Positions 1-10,951 of a stretch of 10,951 nucleotides of DNA are shown one piece after another. The stretch comes from a virus (lineage: Duplodnaviria > Heunggongvirae > Uroviricota > Caudoviricetes), in the IMG/VR virus record IMGVR_UViG_2693429774_000016. One strand, 5' to 3'. Position 1 is the first letter of the stretch; each line of letters starts with the position of its first letter. The translations under genes were made by a program, and so were the position numbers. The notes beneath the pieces are model-generated. The model saw only the letters and a program-made list of their open reading frames with translations, was not told the origin of the DNA and made no database searches.

Positions 1-180
1 GCTTATATTCCTACAGGGATTGCTTATGCTATCTGGTCAGGAGTCGGTATTGTCCTGATTAGCTTACTATCATGGGGATTTTTCGGCCAACGGTTGGACC
101 TGCCAGCCATTATAGGCATGATGTTGATTTGTGCCGGTGTGTTGGTTATTAATTTATTGTCACGAAGCACGCCACATTAA
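1..180 (+). CDS. emrE: SMR-family multidrug efflux transporter EmrE, C-terminal 59 codons (5' end lies outside the window)
   Basis: Frame 1 translation [59 protein letters not shown] ends at TAA 178-180 and matches the C-terminus of E. coli EmrE as I recall it, with one conservative I/V difference. Recalled sequence, not a database hit. Confidence 0.9.
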
Positions 181-210
181 AAATAATTTGTTTTTAAACG
201 ACTAAAATAT

Positions 211-255
211 GGAGGCTCGTATATTTATATGGGCCTCGTTTTATGCTTTTTGTTA
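211..255 (+). terminator. Weak candidate intrinsic terminator downstream of emrE
   Basis: Short GAGGC (212-216) / GCCTC (233-237) stem with an AT-rich loop, followed by a T-rich stretch GTTTTATGCTTTTTG. The stem is only 5 bp, so this is tentative. Confidence 0.25.
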
Positions 256-435
256 ATGTCTTTAGTTTTTATTCATTCTTTTGTGCTTTCAAGATTATGG
301 TGTAAGAAAATTGCAATACGATTATTGTTGTATATTCAAGATAATGTGACCTTAATTGTCTTTTTAAATAAAAATTAAACAAAAATCATATCTCACCACT
401 AAGGTTTATAAAAGCATACTTTAGCAGGTGTCACC

Positions 436-1962
436 ATGAAAAAAGCCATAGCATATATGCGATTTTCATCACCAAGTCAGATGTCTGGTGATTCATTAAA
501 CCGCCAGAGAAGGCTTATTACTGAATGGCTAAAGGTAAATAGTGATTATTACCTTGATACCGTAACGTATGAAGATTTGGGGTTAAGCGCATTCAATGGA
601 AAGCATGCACAATCAGGAGCTTTTTCGGAATTTTTAGATGCTATAGAACATGGTTATATATTGCCAGGGACTACATTGTTAGTTGAAAGTCTGGACAGAC
701 TTTCAAGAGAAAAAGTCGGTGAGGCGATTGAGCGTCTGAAATTGATTTTGAATCACGGTATTGATGTTATAACTCTTTGCGATAATACAGTCTATAATAT
801 TGACTCATTGAATGAGCCATATTCATTAATAAAAGCCATACTTATAGCACAAAGGGCAAATGAAGAAAGCGAGATAAAGTCAAGTCGGGTTAAATTATCA
901 TGGAAGAAAAAACGGCAGGATGCACTGGAGTCAGGCACGATTATGACGGCGTCTTGTCCGAGATGGCTCTCATTGGATGACAAAAGAACGGCTTTTGTTC
1001 CAGACCCCGACAGGGTGAAAACTATTGAGCTAATTTTTAAACTCAGGATGGAAAGGCGCTCATTGAATGCAATAGCCAAGTATTTAAATGATCATGCTGT
1101 AAAGAATTTCTCAGGAAAAGAAAGTGCATGGGGACCTTCTGTAATTGAAAAATCATTAGCGAATAAAGCTCTGATAGGTATATGCGTACCTTCATATCGT
1201 GCAAGAGGTAAAGGAATAAGTGAAATCGCTGGCTATTATCCCAGAGTCATATCAGATGATTTGTTTTACGCTGTGCAGGAAATTCGGTTGGCACCTTTTG
1301 GTATTAGCAATAGTAGCAAAAATCCTATGTTGATAAATCTACTTCGAACAGTTATGAAGTGCGAGGCTTGTGGTAATACCATGATTGTTCATGCGGTATC
1401 TGGAAGTTTGCATGGCTATTATGTTTGTCCGATGAGAAGACTGCATCGATGTGACAGACCATCAATAAAGAGAGATTTGGTTGATTATAATATCATTAAT
1501 GAGTTGCTTTTTAATTGTAGTAAAATCCAACCAGTTGAAAACAAGAAAGATGCTAATGAAACTTTAGAGTTGAAAATTATTGAGCTCCAGATGAAAATTA
1601 ATAATTTAATTGCTGCATTATCTGTTGCGCCTGAAGTTACCGCTATAGCAGAAAAAATCAGAGTATTAGATAAGGAATTACGAAGGGCTTCTGTATCATT
1701 AAAAACTTTGAAGAGTAAAGCGGTGAGTTCACTTGGTGATTTTCATGCTATTGACTTAACCAGTAAAAATGGGCGAGAGCTATGTCGTACACTTGCCTAT
1801 AAAACATTCGAAAAAATCATAATCAATACAGATAATAAAACCTGTGATATCTATTTTATGAATGGCATTGTTTTTAAACACTATCCTTTAATGAAAACAA
1901 TATCCGCCCAGCAGGCGATAAGTACTCTCAAATATATGGTTGATGGTGAGGTTTATTTTTGA
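436..1962 (+). CDS. ybcK: Large serine recombinase (resolvase/invertase-type catalytic domain plus zinc-ribbon recombinase domain); likely prophage integrase/recombinase
   Basis: 508-aa ORF with SD AGGTG 5 nt upstream of the ATG. N-terminus YMRFSSPSQ fits the serine-recombinase catalytic-Ser motif. A Cys-x2-Cys ... Cys-x6-Cys segment (CEACGNT...YYVCPMRRLHRCD) is typical of the zinc ribbon of large serine recombinases, followed by a coiled-coil-like region. Size and position directly after emrE match the K-12 DLP12 gene ybcK; the symbol is from memory. Confidence 0.85.
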   Translation: MKKAIAYMRFSSPSQMSGDSLNRQRRLITEWLKVNSDYYLDTVTYEDLGLSAFNGKHAQSGAFSEFLDAIEHGYILPGTTLLVESLDRLSREKVGEAIERLKLILNHGIDVITLCDNTVYNIDSLNEPYSLIKAILIAQRANEESEIKSSRVKLSWKKKRQDALESGTIMTASCPRWLSLDDKRTAFVPDPDRVKTIELIFKLRMERRSLNAIAKYLNDHAVKNFSGKESAWGPSVIEKSLANKALIGICVPSYRARGKGISEIAGYYPRVISDDLFYAVQEIRLAPFGISNSSKNPMLINLLRTVMKCEACGNTMIVHAVSGSLHGYYVCPMRRLHRCDRPSIKRDLVDYNIINELLFNCSKIQPVENKKDANETLELKIIELQMKINNLIAALSVAPEVTAIAEKIRVLDKELRRASVSLKTLKSKAVSSLGDFHAIDLTSKNGRELCRTLAYKTFEKIIINTDNKTCDIYFMNGIVFKHYPLMKTISAQQAISTLKYMVDGEVYF

Positions 1963-2073
1963 GTAATAATCACTTTTTCAACCGTGCTATAGTAAGAAAG
2001 TTAGGTAAGTACAATAAAATTATCTATCCTGAACGAAGCGTCCTGAGCTATGGTTTTACTATAGGGACTGCCA

Positions 2074-2373
2074 ATGGATGCTGGCGTTCTCGTTCTAGCA
2101 GTTCAACAATACCCAATCACAAAACAATTCACTGATAACAAACTTTGTGCACGTGCTTGGTTATGGCGAGCAGGTGATGTGATGTTAACTGCCTGCCAGA
2201 ACGTTACTCCACTACTTCAGGTTGCGGAGCACCGCGAAGCCGGCCGCTTTACTTCTATCGAGCAAGAATATCCCCAGATACTCAACAGAGCGCGAGCAAT
2301 CCTCGCCAGAGAAACGGCACATGTAAAATTCCAGCCGTGGCTGGATGATAAGTGGAGTCGAGTGTTACCATAA
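2074..2373 (+). CDS. Hypothetical protein (99 aa), unknown function; possibly phage cargo or a gene remnant
   Basis: ORF with a GGGA-type weak RBS and a good stem-loop plus T-run terminator 45 nt downstream. No family recognised from the sequence. Confidence 0.45.
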   Translation: MDAGVLVLAVQQYPITKQFTDNKLCARAWLWRAGDVMLTACQNVTPLLQVAEHREAGRFTSIEQEYPQILNRARAILARETAHVKFQPWLDDKWSRVLP

Positions 2374-2416
2374 TTCCGTCAGAATCTGTTCCAATAAAGT
2401 CACTAGTTAGAAATAC

Positions 2417-2456
2417 TGCCAGCATTCTACGATGACGGAAGTGCTGGCATTTTTTG
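2417..2456 (+). terminator. Rho-independent terminator candidate
   Basis: TGCCAGCA (2417-2424) pairs perfectly with TGCTGGCA (2442-2449), with extra TTC/GAA pairing inside, followed by TTTTTT at 2451-2456. Confidence 0.55.
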
Positions 2457-2631
2457 GGTAATATGCGAGTCCATTTCATAAAATACGGGTGCTGTAAACT
2501 GGACGATATAATCTAAAATATACCATTACCAGTAGCGTTCAAATCGCTATGTGCCGATACGGATAAAATTATATTGATTGTGCACATACCTTATTGGATA
2601 TTACTGAGGGGTATTTATATAAGGTGTAACG

Positions 2632-3141
2632 ATGATGTGGAACTTTGACAGTGCCGACTTAAGTGCAATAGCAGCAGGTATTTCTGCGTTTGGCACATTA
2701 GCCGCAGCGGGGTCGGCGCTTGCAAGTTGGTACACGTCAAAAAAAGCGCTGCAGCTACAAAATAGAGTTTACCTTTATGAGTCTTTAAAGGCTTGCGCTG
2801 AGAGAGCCAATTCATCAGCTAAAGATAAGCGCGGATCTGAATGGAGCGTTAATGATGCAGCGGATATCATCAGGTGCCTAGTACGGGCGATGGAGATCAT
2901 CAAGCAGGATAGCCAGCAGAAAGAAGGTAATCAGGCATTAATGTTGAAACAGTACTTTGTTAATCTGCTAATAATGGAACTGTACGAGGAAGTTCATAAC
3001 GGTGATGCGGCTGATTCTGTTTTTAAAAGTACGGAACCTACACAAGTACTTGATAACTTATGGAGCAAATGGCAGGAGGCTATAGCTTTTTTTGATATTT
3101 GGAATTACCCAGTTGCGACTGAGGAAGACTTGGCAGACTAA
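2632..3141 (+). CDS. Hypothetical protein (169 aa) with an N-terminal hydrophobic, probably membrane-spanning segment and an acidic helical C-terminal domain; unknown function
   Basis: SD AAGGTG 5 nt upstream of ATG 2632. Residues ~10-35 (LSAIAAGISAFGTLAAAGSALASWY) form a hydrophobic helix. No recognisable family. The K-12 DLP12 neighbours ybcL and ybcM, as I recall them, are not here. Confidence 0.6.
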   Translation: MMWNFDSADLSAIAAGISAFGTLAAAGSALASWYTSKKALQLQNRVYLYESLKACAERANSSAKDKRGSEWSVNDAADIIRCLVRAMEIIKQDSQQKEGNQALMLKQYFVNLLIMELYEEVHNGDAADSVFKSTEPTQVLDNLWSKWQEAIAFFDIWNYPVATEEDLAD

Positions 3142-3335
3142 TTTTCAGCACATTTGATTTCCAATAATCAACCAGCCATAATCATGCCATTGGGGCCTGA
3201 ACAACTCCGGTGACTTCTGCGCTAAACGGGGACGTTTATGCGCACATACAATCCAACCTCTCTTCTCCATTCACAGATGCAGAAATGCACCTGCGATATT
3301 TTGCATCCAGCGTTTGATCTCTGCGGAGGTGAAGC

Positions 3336-3590
3336 GTGAACCTCCCACAAGATGGTATCAAATTGCATCGCGGTAACTTCACCGCTATCGGTCGGCAGAT
3401 CCAGCCTTATCTGGAGGACGGCAAATGCTTTCGCATGGTGCTTAAACCGTGGCGCGAGAGACGCAGTCTTTCCCAGAATGCACTCAGCCACATGTGGTAC
3501 AGCGAAATCAGTGAATACCTCATCAGCAAGGGTAAAACGTTCGCCACTCCAGCTTGGGTATCCGCACCGGCGGGCGCGTGCTGGCGGTAA
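3336..3590 (+). pseudogene. ybcN: NinB/YbcN-family protein, 5' fragment, truncated by fusion to tail-fibre DNA
   Basis: GTG start with GGAGG 8 nt upstream. The first ~73 codons contain WRERRSLSQNALSHMWYSEISEY, resembling the conserved RSLDQN...W core of lambda NinB and the recalled K-12 YbcN. Homology ends at about 3552 and the reading frame runs into J-like sequence. Confidence 0.55.
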
Positions 3591-4537
3591 ACAGCCAGAC
3601 CCGGACGCTGACGCTCGACCGTGAAATCACGCTGCCATCTTCCGGCACCACGCTGATAAGCCTGGTTGACGGGCAGGGGAGTCCGGTCAGCGTGGAGGTT
3701 CAGTCCGTCACCGACGGCGTGAAGGTGAAAGTGAGCCGTGTTCCTGACGGCGTTGCTGAATACAGCGTATGGGGGCTGAAGCTGCCGACGTTGCGCCAGC
3801 GCCTGTTCCGCTGCGTGAGTATCCGTGAGAACGACGACGGCACGTATGCCATCACCGCCGTGCAGCATGTACCGGAAAAAGAGGCCATCGTGGATATTGA
3901 GAACACCCCTGACGGCATGCAGAGTCAGGTGCTGCTGGCGGCGGACAGGATTGCGATGGTTAATCCTGCGAATGGCAACACAAAACCGATGTTTGTTGGT
4001 CAGGGCGATCAGATATTCATGAACGACGTGTTCCTGAAACGCCTGACGGCCCCCACCATTACCAGCGGTGGAAATCCACCGGCATTTTCCCTGACACCGG
4101 ACGGAAAGCTGACCGCTAAAAATGCGGATATCAGTGGCAGTGTGAATGCGAACGCCGGGACGCTCAACAATGTCACGGTAAATGAAAACTGTACGATTAA
4201 GGGCATGCTGGAGGCGACTCAGGTCAGAGGTGACTTCGTTAAAGCTGTATCCAAATCATTCCCGAAACAGGCTGGTACGTGGGGTAATACGGAAACACCA
4301 AACGGGACGGTTACAGTCACCATCAGCGATGATCATAACTTTGACCGTCAAATCATTATTCCGCCCATTATCTTTAACGGAATAGCGTATAGCGATCCGG
4401 GAAGTGGTAATATTGGTGCTCATACGCACTCCGTTGCGATTGGCTCACATGGACACACCATCACCGTTAACGCTGCTGGTAACGCGGAAAACACCGTCAA
4501 AAACATCGCATTTAACTACATTGTGAGGCTTGCATAA
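3554..4537 (+). CDS. Lambda J-like host-specificity / tail-tip protein fragment: central segment plus C-terminal region with internal deletion and a divergent C-terminal tip; likely a remnant
   Basis: Translation contains [22 protein letters not shown]...[18 protein letters not shown]...[35 protein letters not shown] and later [56 protein letters not shown]. Both match lambda J segments as I recall them, but the intervening J sequence is missing and the last ~60 residues differ. No genuine N-terminus: the ORF begins at a TTG just after the ninB-like junction. Confidence 0.7.
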
Positions 4538-5121
4538 TGGCATTCAGAATGAGTGAACAACCACGGACCATAAAAATTTATAATCTGCTGGCCGGAACTA
4601 ATGAATTTATTGGTGAAGGTGACGCATATATTCCGCCTCATACAGGTCTGCCAGCAAACAGTACCTATATTGCACCGCCAGATATTCCGGTAGGCTTCGT
4701 GGCTGTTTTCAACAGTGATGAGGCATCGTGGCATCTCGTTGAAGATCATCGGGGAAAAACCGTCTATGACGTGGCTTCCGGCGACTCGTTATTTATTTCT
4801 GAACTCGGACCTCTACCGGAAAATATCACCTGGTTATCCCCGGAAGGGGAGTTTCAGAAGTGGAACGGCACAGCCTGGGTGAAGGATACGGAAGCAGAAA
4901 AACTGTTCCGGATCCGGGAGGCGGAAGAAACAAAAAACAGCCTGATGCAGGTAGCCAGTGAGCATATTGCCCCGCTTCAGGATGCTGCAGATCTGGAAAT
5001 CGCAACGGAGGAAGAAACCTCGTTGCTTGAAGCCTGGAAGAAGTATCGGGTGTTGCTGAATCGTGTTGATACATCAACTGCACCTGATATTGAGTGGCCT
5101 GCAATCCCTGTTATGGAATAA
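4537..5121 (+). CDS. tfa: Tail fibre assembly protein (lambda Tfa family), apparently full length
   Basis: 194-aa ORF beginning [39 protein letters not shown], near-identical to recalled lambda Tfa. Its ATG overlaps the upstream stop (TAATG), the usual fibre/chaperone coupling. Confidence 0.9.
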
Positions 5122-5240
5122 TAGTTTTGTGATATGCCGCAGAAACGTTATATGCAATAACGTGCTGCGGTTGGCTGATGTACTTTCGAGAGTGTATTGA
5201 ATAATTTCCAACCGTCATTAATTTTATTTATTTTTTGTAT

Positions 5241-5264
5241 GAGAGGATTTGAACCTCCGAGCCT
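5241..5264 (-). other. tRNA-Pro 3' fragment (T-arm relic), probable integration-site scar or module junction
   Basis: Minus-strand sequence TCGGAGGTTCAAATCCTCTC (plus 5241-5260) has a canonical T-arm (GGAGG stem, TTCAAAT loop, CCTCT). It matches the T-arm region of E. coli tRNA-Pro (proL-type) as I recall it over about 20 nt. No acceptor stem, CCA end or 5' half is present. Confidence 0.5.
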
Positions 5265-5454
5265 CGACACCTTATGACAACGCGATATTGCCTTGATGAC
5301 CGCCATGTGCCAAAATAACCAATTGATAAATAAGTTGATTTTAATTGGTTGGAAGCAAGTCAGGTCAAATTCAGCATTCCGCTCTCTGTATCGGATAGTT
5401 AAATTTTTCTATAACTGATAGTAATATGTTAAAACTCACACAGATAAATTATCA

Positions 5455-7437
5455 TTGCTCAACAAGTATAATGGAGTTCCCGTGGATACAGCAGAACATG
5501 ATGGCAAGTTTGCTTGGGCTAGTTTTTATGAGGCTTTTGCCAACGCGTTACTGACTTGGCGAAATCGTAGAGATGAATTAGTCAAAGGTATTCATCTAAT
5601 TGCCTCGGGTGTGGAAGGAATGTCCCATCTGCAGGACAAATCTATTATGGGAGAGATCTTTCCCTTAAAAGACATTTGTCCGTTTACTACTATGGGCTTG
5701 TTCAATCGTAACTTGACCGACAGCAATCGCAAAATTATTGCTGCCAAGCTAGCGAATTTGTTGGGCGTGAACGAACCGATTCCTGACTCCTTTGCCGGAA
5801 TCCCTCTGTTGAATAACCAAAAATCTTGGTTCTTTGGTTATGAAAAGTCACGCGACCCTAATGACATTGAATGCTTGTGGGAAATGTTCTCACAGGCAAT
5901 GATCTTTGCGGATAACCAGAATACTAACTCTGCAGACTTCACTGCCGCATATGACATCGCTTCTACAGTAATGAATGTCGGTTGGAATCTCACCATGGGG
6001 TTGTACTGGACCCGTCCTTGGTTCTACCCCACTTTAGATAGCCAGTCGCAGTATTACATTCAGACAGTGTTAAACATTAAGATCATTAAAAACGGGGCAA
6101 AAGGTCGCTGTAGTGGACAAAGTTACCTGAGTCTTATGCGGGCGCTGAACGAGGTCTTTACCCAACCAAACTATCCGGTTCATTCTTTCCCAGAACTTTC
6201 CTTATCAGCGTGGAATACAGATCTTAGCCAGTCTAAAGATGAGGTGGCAAATAGAACGTGGAAAGCCTCTTTACTGAATAAAATTAAGGCGTTATGCCTG
6301 AAAAAAAATGGCCCTTATTTCACTGCTTCGGAGTTGGAAGAAAACTACTTGGACGTATTCAAGGTAGAGCATCCTGAGAGCAAAACTGTTACAAGCTCAA
6401 TCTACTTTTATCTACAGAAACTATGCAATGATGATGAGTTAAAGTCCCTCGAGTCCGGAAATTATGAATACCTGAATTTTGAGAAAAACGAATCCCAGAC
6501 GATAACTGAGGAAACTGTCGAAGAGAGTGCGCTGTTGCCAAAACTCACCCACGTTCCTTATGACATCAGTCATCTGGTGCAGGATGGCTGTTTCTTGGAA
6601 GAGGCTAAGATCCAACTCACACTTCAGCGCCTGATCGACAAGAAAAACCTGATATTACAAGGACCACCCGGAACTGGAAAAACTTGGTTAGCGCGACGTC
6701 TGGCGTACTGCTTGATGGGAGAAAAAGCACCTGAGCGTATTAGCGCGGTGCAATTTCACCCGAACCTCTCTTACGAAGACTTTATTCGAGGCTGGCGTCC
6801 AGGTAAAGAAGGGCAATTGACGCTAATTGATGGACCTTTTGTAAATGCAATCAAAACTGCAGTCAATAATCCTACCTCGAAATATGTGGTGATAATTGAA
6901 GAGATTAATCGTGGCAATCCGGCGCAAATCTTCGGTGAAACACTCACGTTGATGGAAGCAGATAAACGCACGCCGACTGAGGCATTATCTCTTTCCTATC
7001 CTAAAAATGCTGATGAAAAAATATACATTCCTGAGAATCTATATATCATCGGTACGATGAATATTGCAGACCGCTCACTCGCACTACTTGACCTAGCGCT
7101 GCGCCGTCGTTTCGCGTTTATCGATCTAAAGCCAGCTTTTAATGACGCGTGGAGAAACTGGGTAAATTATAATTACGCAATTGATTTTGACATGTTAGCA
7201 TTCATCAAATCTCGACTGACGGTATTAAACGATATGCTGGCAAAAGATGTTACCTTAGGACCACAGTTTTGTATCGGTCACAGCTATGTCACCCCAGCTA
7301 TCGGCCAAAAAATCAACGATGCCCAGGCTTGGTATGAACAAGTCGTTGATACAGAGATCTGCCCTTTGCTCGCCGAATATTGGTTCGATGCTCCAAATAA
7401 AGTCGATGAAGCCAGAAAAGTGTTATTAGCAAAATGA
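5455..7437 (+). CDS. McrB-like GTPase subunit of a type IV modification-dependent restriction system, with an unrecognised ~400-aa N-terminal domain
   Basis: C-terminal ~260 aa align to recalled K-12 McrB: Walker A GPPGTGKT (6661-6684), Walker B-like VVIIEEINRGN, GTP-specificity motif MNIADRSLA, and RRRFAFIDL. The ORF begins at TTG 5455; GTG 5482 preceded by GGAG with a 5-nt spacer may be the true start. The N-terminal domain resembles nothing I recognise. Confidence 0.85.
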   Translation: MLNKYNGVPVDTAEHDGKFAWASFYEAFANALLTWRNRRDELVKGIHLIASGVEGMSHLQDKSIMGEIFPLKDICPFTTMGLFNRNLTDSNRKIIAAKLANLLGVNEPIPDSFAGIPLLNNQKSWFFGYEKSRDPNDIECLWEMFSQAMIFADNQNTNSADFTAAYDIASTVMNVGWNLTMGLYWTRPWFYPTLDSQSQYYIQTVLNIKIIKNGAKGRCSGQSYLSLMRALNEVFTQPNYPVHSFPELSLSAWNTDLSQSKDEVANRTWKASLLNKIKALCLKKNGPYFTASELEENYLDVFKVEHPESKTVTSSIYFYLQKLCNDDELKSLESGNYEYLNFEKNESQTITEETVEESALLPKLTHVPYDISHLVQDGCFLEEAKIQLTLQRLIDKKNLILQGPPGTGKTWLARRLAYCLMGEKAPERISAVQFHPNLSYEDFIRGWRPGKEGQLTLIDGPFVNAIKTAVNNPTSKYVVIIEEINRGNPAQIFGETLTLMEADKRTPTEALSLSYPKNADEKIYIPENLYIIGTMNIADRSLALLDLALRRRFAFIDLKPAFNDAWRNWVNYNYAIDFDMLAFIKSRLTVLNDMLAKDVTLGPQFCIGHSYVTPAIGQKINDAQAWYEQVVDTEICPLLAEYWFDAPNKVDEARKVLLAK

Positions 7438-8555
7438 CGACAATAACCGGGAGTGAGCAACATACAGCATCACGTATTCCCATGCGAAATATCTGGATGC
7501 TGATGCTGTACGCTTCAGATCTGTTTCGCCAGTTAGGGCGCAATCAGATCGCAGTAGAAGATAACCCAGCAGAAATCCCCGACCTGGTGGCGACAATCCT
7601 CCTTCATGAGATTACGCTGCGCCGACGTCGCAATTTAAATATGGGATACCAAACTTGTCATGCGGCCCTGAACCGGGTGAGAGGGCGCATTGACATACTG
7701 TATACTGCCAGTCATCAACTGCTGGAACGGGGACAGGTTGCCTGCCATTTTCAAGACATAACCCTCAACACCCCCCGAAATCGCTATGTTCGCTGTGCGT
7801 TAGAACGTCTGGCCTCAATCATAGTGAAACCGTCTTTGGCGGCAGATTGCCATTTTATGGCAATATCACTTCGCCGTGAGGGGATAAATGGAGGATATCC
7901 TGCCCCCCGCGAATTACCCTCAGTGTGGCGTTTTGGACGCCATGATGCCGCAGATAAACCGATGGTCGATGCCGCACGATTAGCTTTTGAACTGCTGATG
8001 CCGACCGAAGATCAAGGCCAATATCTTTTACCTGCGCCCTCAAATAACCTTTACTGGATGAGAAGACTATTTGAAAAAGGTATCGCTGGCTTATATCGTG
8101 TACACCTTGCCAAAACAACTTGGCAGGTCTCTGCAGGGAAAGAGCTGAAATGGGCGTTGAGCGATCAAAGTGCAGGTAGTGCAGAGATTTTCCCGACAAT
8201 GAAGTCAGACATTATTCTGGAACACAAGACTGCCCAGCGGCGTATTATTATCGATACCAAATTTAATTCGATTCTGACAAAGGGTTGGCATCGGGAGCAA
8301 TCACTACGTAATGGCTATATTTATCAGCTATATACCTACCTTAGAACACAGGAGAACAAGACGGATCCGCTTTCGCTCAATGCCGCTGGTCTTCTACTTC
8401 ATCCAGCTGTTGGCTATATGCTTAATGAGTATGTTGTCACTCAGGGACATAAGATCCATTTTGCTACAGTAGATATGACGGTAGATGCTAAAGCAATTAA
8501 AAAACAATTGCTGGCAATAGCCCATGATTGTGCAGGAGTCGCGGTTGATGACTAA
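7434..8555 (+). CDS. McrC-like PD-(D/E)xK endonuclease subunit of a type IV restriction system
   Basis: 373-aa ORF whose ATG overlaps the McrB-like stop (ATGA at 7434-7437). The N-terminal PMRNIWMLMLYA resembles K-12 McrC PVRNIYYMLTYAW. SDIIL ... IIIDTKF parallels McrC TDITI ... IVDAKYY, so the catalytic D ... D-x-K appears intact. Confidence 0.85.
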   Translation: MTTITGSEQHTASRIPMRNIWMLMLYASDLFRQLGRNQIAVEDNPAEIPDLVATILLHEITLRRRRNLNMGYQTCHAALNRVRGRIDILYTASHQLLERGQVACHFQDITLNTPRNRYVRCALERLASIIVKPSLAADCHFMAISLRREGINGGYPAPRELPSVWRFGRHDAADKPMVDAARLAFELLMPTEDQGQYLLPAPSNNLYWMRRLFEKGIAGLYRVHLAKTTWQVSAGKELKWALSDQSAGSAEIFPTMKSDIILEHKTAQRRIIIDTKFNSILTKGWHREQSLRNGYIYQLYTYLRTQENKTDPLSLNAAGLLLHPAVGYMLNEYVVTQGHKIHFATVDMTVDAKAIKKQLLAIAHDCAGVAVDD

Positions 8556-8911
8556 CCATCCTATAAGGCACTGGCTGTAATATAATCAATAGTTTCAATT
8601 AAGTAGCTGTTATCCGTGCTTAGTCATCATATGACGCACCACGGTCTAATTTTCCTGCTCATACATTGATATATCCTTGTCGTGCCCGGAAAGTCGCAGT
8701 CCACTATGAGGTATACCGATTGCCAGCACCAAAAGCTTCTTTGTGATTATTATATCGGGGAATGCCTATTTTTTTAGTGACAATATCAGATAGCAATTAA
8801 TAAGCGGTGCCGGTAATGGATGTTATGTTTAATGTATAGACACAGCCATCATAAACTAAACGTCTGTTGTTCGCTCATAACCGACATTTATCTCAGTTAT
8901 GGAGGATAATT

Positions 8912-8992
8912 ATGTATGCAGATAATGGGGCAGACAGTCGTGGAGTAAACAAGGTTTTGCACTGCTTGGCGGCATCGTTATCTTATTTTTAA
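8912..8992 (+). CDS. Candidate small ORF (26 aa, MYADNGADSRGVNKVLHCLAASLSYF) with a strong Shine-Dalgarno; speculative
   Basis: GGAGG at 8901-8905 sits 6 nt upstream of ATG 8912; stop TAA at 8990-8992. It lies in an otherwise ORF-free arm. No homology recognised. Confidence 0.2.
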   Translation: MYADNGADSRGVNKVLHCLAASLSYF

Positions 8993-9255
8993 TTATGTGC
9001 CTCTTAACATAAGTTGGGACAAAACAGAGACACATAAGGTCTCACAAAGGTCTGCAAGGCCTCACATGTATTGAGATGTTAATAAAATGTAGACTTGTAA
9101 TTTGGATATAAATGGTAGAGAAAACCTTTCCCCAAAATAAAAACGAACGTCAATGAAATCAAACGGTTGAATAAAGTTTATTTTGGCTAATAAAAAGACA
9201 ATAAAATAATTTTTATCGTTAAATATCAATGACTTGAATTCATGGTTTTTATATA

Positions 9256-9420
9256 CTGCTGCGCCATATGGGTTGGACTGAAGCGGCTGACCTGATTGTT
9301 AAAGGTATGGAAGGCGCAATCAATGCCAAGACCGTAACTTATGACTTCGAACGTCTGATGGAAGGCGCTAAGCTGCTGAAATGTTCAGAGTTTGGTGAAG
9401 CGATCATCGAAAACATGTAA
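9256..9420 (+). pseudogene. icdC: Isocitrate dehydrogenase 3' fragment (icdC-type attachment-site duplication), last ~55 codons only
   Basis: Translation [54 protein letters not shown] matches the C-terminus of E. coli Icd as I recall it. The sequence upstream of 9256 is non-coding and AT-rich, so this is an isolated fragment. Its length, about 165 bp, equals the icd duplication known for e14-type integration. Confidence 0.85.
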
Positions 9421-9522: not shown

Positions 9523-9846
9523 TTACTTGAGCCCATATGGGCATATTTTTATAATGCAACTATTATGTAAACATTTATTTGTTATTTTGCTTTCTCCTGG
9601 AGGACACTCTTGACTGCTTTTGAGTAAACTCCATAAATCCTTGTTGAATGGTGCGATGTGATAAATAGTAATAGGATATTCTTTATCCTTAAGGATAATA
9701 CCAGACTTAACCGGTGTAAATATACTGCCAGGAGGGAGAAATATAGTAGATTGATACCAGATGATCATTTTCATATTACCCCATATGGCTGAAAAAGATA
9801 TACCACATGTAGGTTGAATTACCGTGTCAATTACTATCCACTTCAT
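9523..9846 (-). CDS. iraM: Anti-adaptor protein IraM (inhibits RssB-mediated RpoS degradation)
   Basis: 107-aa minus-strand [35 protein letters not shown]... matches K-12 IraM (formerly YcgW) as I recall it in length and sequence. Its position next to icdC agrees with the K-12 gene order. Confidence 0.85.
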
Positions 9847-10546: not shown

Positions 10547-10951
10547 CTAGATTAATGGTTTATTATTTTCTACATCTTCAATATATAAAAGCGTATTATC
10601 AATGGCGTAGTAACTGCGTTTGTTATGATTAACATCAGTAACCCACCGGAAAACGCCCGCACCTGCCAGTGTTGAACAGTATTCCCGAAATGTAGATTTT
10701 CCGCAAATATGAAGCAATGCGGCCTCTTTTATTTTAGCAGGGTTCTTGGTCGTACTAACTTTTAACAGGTTCCTGGTTCCTCTTAATAACAAAACCGTAT
10801 CATCGTGAGTAATAATTCTGATGTTATCCGTAGCCAGATAATAAATGTAATGTGCAATACGGTGATGTTTTAATTCTGAATAAAACCAGGAGAAGTTTTG
10901 CTCTTTTCTCACTTGCTCAAACATCTTTTGAAAAACAACGACCTGATCCAT
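10547..10951 (-). CDS. ycgX: Conserved hypothetical protein (YcgX-like); start codon is the last three bases of the window
   Basis: 134-aa minus-strand ORF beginning at the window edge (reverse complement of CAT at 10949-10951). In K-12 the gene next to iraM is ycgX, a protein of this size. Symbol assigned by synteny and memory only. Confidence 0.6.
   Translation of the reverse strand: MDQVVVFQKMFEQVRKEQNFSWFYSELKHHRIAHYIYYLATDNIRIITHDDTVLLLRGTRNLLKVSTTKNPAKIKEAALLHICGKSTFREYCSTLAGAGVFRWVTDVNHNKRSYYAIDNTLLYIEDVENNKPLI

Follow-up and report, generated by a model that had tools for sequence, protein, structure and literature searches.

The window analysed here is a 10,951-nucleotide stretch recorded in IMG/VR as a virus (IMGVR_UViG_2693429774_000016); it is Escherichia coli chromosome and covers the right end of an e14-like prophage, cryptic and decayed, that is inserted in icd. 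Between the tail-fibre remnants of this prophage and a displaced icd 3' end lie an mcrB-like gene and mcrC, which, judging from their sequences, are likely to encode a working type IV restriction system of the McrBC family, sitting as ~3.8-kb cargo at the attR end of the element. Both the motor and the nuclease of this system are ordinary in mechanism, and the reader comes from a large uncharacterised family. RefSeq already annotates the locus, only as an "AAA family ATPase" and McrC. In what follows, residues are numbered on the 651-aa form of protein 1, the product of the mcrB-like gene, and on the 373-aa form of protein 2, McrC; coordinates of all features are collected in Table 1.

The C-terminal part of protein 1 is an McrB-type motor. 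In a 282-aa BLASTP alignment its last ~280 residues are 47% identical to residues 178-457 of the McrB protein of E. coli K-12 (EcoKMcrB), and phmmer matches protein 1 to the solved EcoKMcrB structure 6hz4_A at 5e-76. Pfam AAA_5 is matched at 8e-27 and the NCBIfam McrB model NF008457 at 6e-78 (262.5 bits), the latter over model positions 176-452 only. A preliminary description of this DNA, made from the letters alone, had named protein 1 an McrB on the motifs GPPGTGKT, MNIAD and RRRFAFIDL; all of these are present, and the profile matches, whose absence would have told against the name, cover the GTPase part. The name thus stands for the motor half and fails for the N-terminal 370 aa, where the 5-methylcytosine (5mC)-binding domain of EcoKMcrB is missing. 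In the phmmer alignment, DGCF of protein 1 is set against NDLF at the guanine-reading loop of EcoKMcrB (D176-F178), a loop whose role, like those of the other McrB motifs, has been described for EcoKMcrB (PMC7680126). The Walker B motif has EE instead of the DE of EcoKMcrB, matching the consensus of the whole subfamily. The PADLOC library returned only generic type II restriction endonuclease and AAA matches for protein 1 and none for McrC.

Protein 2 is an McrC by several measures. It passes the NCBIfam equivalog model NF007277 with 356 bits (cut-off 338; 2e-106; residues 12-365) and Pfam McrBC PF10117 with 75.4 bits (threshold 23.9; 5e-21), and it aligns to EcoKMcrC over residues 6-342 at 24% identity with the D...DxK motif in register. 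The claim that the second gene encodes an McrC-like protein with an intact D...D-x-K nuclease motif therefore holds, with D259, D274 and K276 at the positions of the EcoKMcrC catalytic residues, which are said to have been numbered D244, D257 and K259 by Pieper and Pingoud in 2002. The same full-length alignment to the solved EcoKMcrC speaks against an unrelated AAA+ system whose second protein lacks a PD-(D/E)xK fold. R169 aligns with K157 of EcoKMcrC, the basic finger residue that activates the McrB GTPase (PMC7680126). The pair thus resembles EcoKMcrBC of K-12 (6hz4, 6ut6, 7vsr) in its two overlapping genes, in a McrB GTPase with Walker A, Walker B, MNxxDRS and arginine fingers, and in an McrC that combines a PD-(D/E)xK site with an N-terminal finger domain and a basic residue for activation.

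The listing of open reading frames (ORFs) gives the two genes as 5455..7437 (+, 660 aa from a TTG) and 7434..8555 (+, 373 aa). Positions 7431-7440 read AAAATGACGA, so that gene 2 starts (ATG) and gene 1 stops (TGA) within a 4-nt overlap (ATGA, 7434-7437), as previously described; the same ATGA overlap occurs in the Leclercia ortholog. Two adjacent overlapping genes with mcrB upstream are the arrangement of an McrBC operon, and the Leclercia genes are arranged alike. The TTG at 5455 was rejected as the start of gene 1 in favour of the GTG at 5482, which is the most likely start and gives 651 aa, since it is preceded by GGAG 5 nt upstream, is the start used by RefSeq, and lies where the closest homologues begin with MDA(A/V)E. 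For gene 2, the comparisons suggest that the ATG at 7434 in the overlap, as originally proposed, is the true start rather than the ATG at 7482 chosen by RefSeq: similarity to EcoKMcrC sets in at residue 15 (IPMRNI / IPVRNI), upstream of Met17, the Leclercia ortholog shares both the ATGA overlap and the conserved N-terminus, and mcrB and mcrC of K-12 overlap too, there by 1 nt. Both the 373-aa and the 357-aa forms of McrC occur in public annotations. The promoter presumably lies in the AT-rich flank upstream of gene 1. A tRNA fragment suspected in this flank at ~5220-5290 received no support from ARAGORN or Rfam.

What sets this operon apart from EcoKMcrBC is the N-terminal half of protein 1. 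No model in the Pfam copy searched (MrcB_N/DUF3578 included, PF28527 not among them) matches aa 1-363 even at an E value of 10, and BLASTP of the first 370 aa against EcoKMcrB residues 1-177 found no similarity. The cut-off of the McrB equivalog model NF008457 (637 bits) was missed at 262.5 bits, the model being matched only from position 176; with a different sensor, protein 1 does not count as an equivalog of EcoKMcrB. Since these 370 aa are unlike, and unrelated to, the DUF3578 domain with which EcoKMcrB flips 5mC, the target modification cannot be read across from EcoKMcrBC. The McrC proteins of the two systems share only 24% identity, and the operons differ in location, the present one lying in the icd prophage cargo slot and that of K-12 in the immigration control region.

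The closest relatives of aa 1-245 carry a precomputed assignment to PF28527, named DUF8425. In a full-library search this segment matched 1942 cluster representatives (50% identity clusters; best 3e-108), and the domain is strongly conserved, with the motifs DICPFTxMGxFNR and GLYWIRPxxFxxLD. DUF8425 is presumed to be the target-recognition module. Its AlphaFold2 model has a predicted local distance difference test score (pLDDT) > 90. Foldseek with this model against the PDB gave nothing at an E value of 0.001 or less, a profile search of PDB sequences with DUF8425 was empty, and Foldseek against the viral structure library BFVD returned noise only; as modelled, DUF8425 is a confidently predicted fold without a solved relative. 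The HhH-GPD DNA glycosylase superfamily (EndoIII, MutY, OGG) was considered for this domain and not adopted. The idea came from the Foldseek PDB matches, nearly all of which are OGG, MutY or Ogg2 (none at 0.001 or less), and from aa 150-186, where a Pro-rich loop and a conserved Asp come after a helix-hairpin-helix. The search intended to build an EndoIII profile recovered only matches at 86% identity or more, which made it a weak test of the idea.

The proteins in which DUF8425 occurs are informative about its role. The domain is widespread and is almost always joined to an McrB-type motor. An McrB-type AAA_5 domain was present in 53 of 65 sampled DUF8425 proteins. Some of the 65 contain a DpnI_C, Mrr_N or HARE-HTH module as well; these modules, each known or predicted to read modified DNA, are interchangeable beside DUF8425. 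One protein, P0231, is a direct fusion of DUF8425 and an HNH_2 nuclease, and in some proteins DUF8425 is present in two or three tandem copies (P0121, P0122 and P0123 are among the odd architectures). A member lies beside a type I restriction-modification system on the Proteus mirabilis plasmid pR997 (locus L008, 4527-7852), R997 being what we take to be an SXT/R391-family integrative conjugative element. These partners and neighbours form the pattern of a type IV restriction target-recognition module, a role that the domain context suggests for DUF8425. An additional unassigned domain of ~150 aa often precedes DUF8425. Plasmid pMP1 of D. radiodurans R1 (locus L007, 5277-9214) carries a distant DUF8425 McrB of 870 aa with its McrC, 3-5 kb downstream of two class I S-adenosylmethionine-dependent DNA methyltransferases.

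DUF8425 is followed in protein 1 by a diverged winged helix of the DpnI_C type. The E. coli segment itself scores 14.5 bits (E 0.04) against Pfam PF17726, short of the gathering threshold of 23 bits, and the orthologous segments of homologues P0002, P0055, P0005 and P0013 score 36-61 bits; its homology to DpnI_C is thus drawn through these relatives. When the winged-helix segment alone was used as a query, only three near-identical fragments were found. The order of N-terminal domain (NTD), DpnI-type winged helix (wH) and McrB-like NTPase, with a gene of its own for McrC, places the operon in the "NTD-wH-NTPase + McrC-like" putative type IV class listed, without activity data, by Helbrecht et al. 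2024 (PMC11037411). In DpnI, residues E228, K229, R231, Q232 and Q235 form the pocket for both methyl groups of G6mATC (6mA, N6-methyladenine) and the base contacts (PMC3424567). In the alignment, EKIRQQLQ of DpnI becomes SSIYFYLQ, so that only Q235 is kept of the five: E is replaced by S, K by S, R by Y and Q by F, and R231-Q232-Q233 by Y-F-Y. This helix is unusually diverged for its class, with YFY in the E. coli protein where relatives have (A/N/D)-R-(Q/H/N), and its host is Dam+. The recognition helix of non-enteric relatives reads ST(I/V/L)-x-R-x-(L/F/M)-Q, and the two closest relatives, Leclercia and one other, have (S/H)-Y where DpnI has R-Q. The domain also differs from the winged helix of DpnI and of wH-nuclease fusions such as FcyTI, HhiV4I and Ahi29725I, both in the replacement of four of the five pocket or contact residues and in its position between DUF8425 and the GTPase rather than fused to a nuclease.

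The Dam methyltransferase of E. coli methylates GATC. Fusions whose winged helix has the DpnI motif were toxic to Dam+ E. coli (PMC11037411), and a DpnI-like specificity would therefore be self-destructive in this host. The GATC/6mA motif is present in only ~10% of winged-helix fusions. The diverged recognition helix fits either a retuned or a degenerate reader. Between the E. coli and Leclercia orthologs, identity falls from 84% in the AAA+ domain and 77% in McrC to 66% in DUF8425 and 42-44% in the winged helix, a drop from motor to sensor indicating that the recognition end evolves fastest. The ratio of nonsynonymous to synonymous divergence (dN/dS) against Leclercia is 0.047 for the AAA+ domain and 0.083 for McrC.

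To our knowledge, in all McrB homologues whose reader has been characterised structurally, that reader is a DUF3578, YTH, PUA/EVE or B3-like domain. We tentatively propose, as a possibility somewhat short of an even chance, that DUF8425 is a previously unrecognised modified-DNA-reading fold with a specificity beyond those of McrA, EcoKMcrBC, Mrr and GmrSD (for example, for a hypermodified phage base), and that the winged helix has been retuned from RQQ to YFY for Dam tolerance. In the mechanism proposed for the operon as a whole, DUF8425 and the retuned winged helix would bind foreign DNA bearing a modification absent from Dam- and Dcm-methylated E. coli DNA. The AAA+ domain, given its 47% identity to EcoKMcrB and its intact motifs, would bind GTP and form hexamers. 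McrC, translationally coupled through the ATGA overlap, would put its N-terminal finger into the ring, where R169, going by its alignment, would stimulate GTP hydrolysis. By analogy with the EcoKMcrBC paradigm, GTP-driven translocation would proceed until complexes meet or stall, and D259, D274 and K276 of McrC would then cut both strands. Expressed from the lysogen, the system would shield both its host and what is left of the prophage from modified phages or plasmids.

McrBC motors occur in combination with many different readers, and it is the reader that decides which phage DNA modifications a host restricts. The McrBC of Thermococcus gammatolerans (6ut3, 6ut5), the second-best family of PDB matches (9e-38), pairs the McrB motor with an unrelated YTH-type 6mA reader under the same McrC-stimulated GTPase mechanism (PMC7680126); it differs from the present operon in that reader (YTH/PUA there, DUF8425 and a winged helix here) and in being archaeal with a far more distant motor. 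The CoCoNuT, or NxD-clade, McrBC systems are predicted to target RNA and are recognised by an NxD signature, long coiled-coil fusions and extra nucleases (PMC11090510). This assignment was rejected, because the signature here is N-I-A-D (NxxD) and the model contains no coiled coil; nor does the window hold any extra genes. A native E. coli copy in the prophage slot of mcrA is an easy system for finding the ligand of DUF8425, and if the fold is indeed a new reader of modified DNA, the e14-slot cassette offers a genetically tractable entry to a family of ~1900 sequence clusters. It also makes it possible to test if retuning lets a DpnI-type winged helix coexist with Dam. In carrier strains, phage-therapy host range or transformation with modified DNA could be limited. 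If the target proves to be one already known, the locus is simply another McrBC variant.

The cassette extends over ~3.8 kb, about 5151-9015, between the tail-fibre remnants and the icd' of the e14-like prophage. Its left edge lies somewhere between about 5151 and 5260: generic lambdoid tfa backbone homology stops by about 5175-5260, and one McrBC-bearing genome matches only from 5151 onward. The exact tfa left junction is common to only 52 genomes, compared with 305 that have the operon. On the right, 8600-9015 was found only in operon carriers (~300 genomes), and the ~245 bp at 9016-9260 are common to 1466 genomes at 91-95% identity, always beside a partial icd. The operon is present in 305 of 5426 complete E. 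coli genomes (about 6%), at an identity of at least 99% and always on the chromosome, and the exact proteins occur on at least 1000 public contigs. The slot itself is used repeatedly, which agrees with the earlier description of the operon as terminal prophage cargo: between the tail-fibre module and the icd' scar, K-12 e14 (L006) holds pinE-mcrA, ST131-type icd prophages (L004, L005) hold sitABCD, and the present prophage holds the McrBC cassette. EcoKMcrA thus shares with this operon its place, with a tail-fibre/invertase module on one side and, on the other, the displaced icd 3' end beside iraM, but it is a single HNH protein with an NEco reader, homologous to neither gene here. The Leclercia copy is not in a prophage, and neither gene has a match among 50,697 phage genome records; together these indicate that the cassette moves on its own and landed in the cargo slot. 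PHROGs gave only generic AAA+/ATPase-family matches for protein 1 and none for McrC. The 460-bp tail of the cassette contains a 26-codon ORF, MYADNGADSRGVNKVLHCLAASLSYF, at 8912-8992 (+), with GGAGG upstream at ideal spacing.

Several other readings of the target bear on the assignment as a type IV system. A plain EcoKMcrBC equivalent, cutting 5-methyl- or 5-hydroxymethylcytosine DNA at R-mC sites, would account for the clear EcoKMcrBC homology of motor and nuclease and for the RefSeq name of the second gene ("5-methylcytosine-specific ... McrC"), but is unlikely given that the EcoK 5mC-flipping N-terminal domain is absent by McrB equivalog score, Pfam and BLASTP alike; cytosine modifications are possible targets through a different reader. 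The homology of aa 250-333 to the C-terminal winged helix of DpnI would instead favour a 6mA-dependent system whose target is G6mATC in fully methylated form, or 6mApT; of the five classes of wH fusions, four had representatives that cut Dam-methylated DNA in vitro (PMC11037411). We consider this quite unlikely: 305 genomes of a Dam+ host keep the operon, the DpnI pocket is reduced to Q235 in a segment that scores far below its relatives, and the 6mA motif is rare among winged-helix fusions. 6mA in another sequence context is possible as a target. Modification dependence as such is suggested by the family to which the operon belongs and by its surroundings, as no methyltransferase gene is encoded in the cassette or in the 10.9-kb window. 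The Leclercia copy likewise has no methyltransferase nearby. Both observations count against a sequence-specific McrBC-like enzyme of the LlaJI/LlaI/BsuMI type, which would cut unmodified sites and need a protective methyltransferase, as do the presence of two genes here rather than three and the finding that, for 87% of the genes encoding winged-helix fusions, no methyltransferase is present within a distance of three genes (PMC11037411). Some non-canonical McrBC homologues do carry site-specific DNA-binding modules (PMC1459862, and a preprint on LlaI), and the pMP1 DUF8425 McrB lies near two methyltransferases, but such an enzyme is highly improbable in the present case.

The alternative that the two ORFs are an inert remnant, hitch-hiking with a decaying prophage and no longer able to restrict, draws on the truncated phage genes around them and on the 5' flank, in which a consensus scan for promoters found no excess over shuffled sequences. 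It draws also on an IS3 insertion that disrupts the operon in one strain, ML35, and on an identity among the E. coli copies that is too high to show selection and may reflect recent spread instead. In E. coli, AT-rich immunity loci have been described as silenced by H-NS (bioRxiv preprint 10.64898/2026.09.05.749240). These points weigh against a working system with DUF8425 as its reader, and so do others. DUF8425 and the winged helix each carry a net charge of -4, which is not typical of DNA binders. The winged helix falls below its Pfam threshold, its wing is modelled with low confidence, and its role might be that of a structural linker, not of a DNA reader. For the sensor domains dS against Leclercia is saturated, so that purifying selection is not measurable there. 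The sole reported attempt to purify a member of the NTD-wH-NTPase + McrC class failed (PMC11037411), and searches of the literature turned up no experiment on the operon, the DUF8425 domain or any McrBC located in the e14 slot, and no paper mentioning DUF8425. An inert remnant is nevertheless improbable, as both long ORFs (651 and 373 aa) keep every catalytic residue, the overlapping arrangement of the genes is conserved, dN/dS takes low values in the parts that allow its measurement (AAA+ and McrC), and 289 of the 305 carriers cover at least 80% of a 3.4-kb query spanning the operon. Of the earlier claim of a working rather than decayed system, the part that stands is that all catalytic and assembly motifs are intact and conserved at 99% or more in 305 genomes; that the McrBC system is also active is probable.

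Table 1. Features of the McrBC cassette and of the rest of the window. Positions are those of the window.
Feature	Position	Strand	Residues	Remarks
mcrB-like gene	5482..7437	+	651 aa	WP_000379040.1, RefSeq "AAA family ATPase"; DUF8425, then winged helix, then McrB-type AAA+ GTPase with McrB lid
DUF8425 domain (Pfam PF28527)	5482..6216	+	aa 1-245	
DUF8425 conserved motif DICPFTTMGLFNR	5671-5709	+	aa 64-76	
DUF8425 conserved motif GLYWTRPWFYPTLD	5998-6039	+	aa 173-186	
Diverged DpnI_C-type winged helix	6229..6480	+	about aa 250-333	
Winged-helix recognition helix SSIYFYLQKLCND	6394-6432	+	aa 305-317	
McrB AAA+ GTPase domain	6583..7434	+	aa 368-651	
Guanine-reading loop region DGCFL	6583-6597	+		Alignment to EcoKMcrB
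Walker A GPPGTGKT	6661-6684	+	aa 394-401	Motif inspection
Walker B VVIIEEINR	6886-6912	+	aa 469-477	Motif inspection
Signature MNIADRS (NxxD type)	7057-7077	+	aa 526-532	Motif inspection
Arginine fingers RRRF, in RRRFAFIDL	7102-7128	+	RRRF aa 541-544; RRRFAFIDL aa 541-549	Motif inspection
mcrC gene, from ATGA-overlap start	7434..8555	+	373 aa	RefSeq WP_001486526.1 starts at 7482 (357 aa)
McrC basic finger	7938-7940	+	R169	FGR169HD aligns with EcoKMcrC GGK157N
McrC PD-(D/E)xK residue	8208-8210	+	D259	SD259IIL aligns with ETDITI
McrC PD-(D/E)xK residues	8253-8255, 8259-8261	+	D274, K276	IIID274-T-K276 aligns with IVDAK
5' flank of cassette	5151..5481	+		AT-rich, non-coding
3' tail of cassette	8556..9015	+		RefSeq annotates no gene
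Large serine recombinase, intact	436-1962	+	508 aa	Resolvase, Recombinase and Zn_ribbon_recom domains; phrog_95 integrase; RefSeq "ybcK"
Antirepressor fragment	2074-2373			Family match
Phage ORF	2632-3141	+	169 aa	phrog_1779 (unknown function), end-to-end match at 1e-102
Tail-tip J fragment, truncated	3554-4537			Family match
Tail-fibre assembly gene (tfa), intact	4537-5121			Last gene upstream of cassette
Conserved right end of icd-integrated (e14-like) prophages and displaced icd 3' end	9016-9420	+		Attachment scar
icd', duplicated last 50 codons of icd	9268-9420	+		Iso_dh C-terminal match; RefSeq partial isocitrate dehydrogenase; K-12 icdC at same place
iraM	9523-9846	minus		RefSeq annotation
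ycgX	10547-10951	minus		RefSeq annotation

In layout the window agrees with K-12 and with E. coli O157:H16 98-3133, whose identical locus is annotated in RefSeq. The degraded phage genes said to surround the operon are found in the truncated J gene and the antirepressor fragment, and the attachment scar said to lie beside it in the duplicated icd 3' end, which is followed by iraM and ycgX. The G+C content is 0.55-0.59 over the tail-tip J fragment (3250-4250), 0.40-0.48 in the McrBC cassette and 0.29-0.35 in the flanking chromosome, three levels that mark the window as a mosaic of at least three origins. In related genomes the tyrosine integrase of the e14-like element is at the opposite end of the element. 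The phage ORF at 2632-3141 has no match in Pfam, NCBIfam or PADLOC, and its N-terminal stretch is hydrophobic. A match to the Rfam IS009 RNA family (214 bits, gathering score 117) lies at 4880-5078 (+), within the 3' part of the tail-fibre assembly gene.

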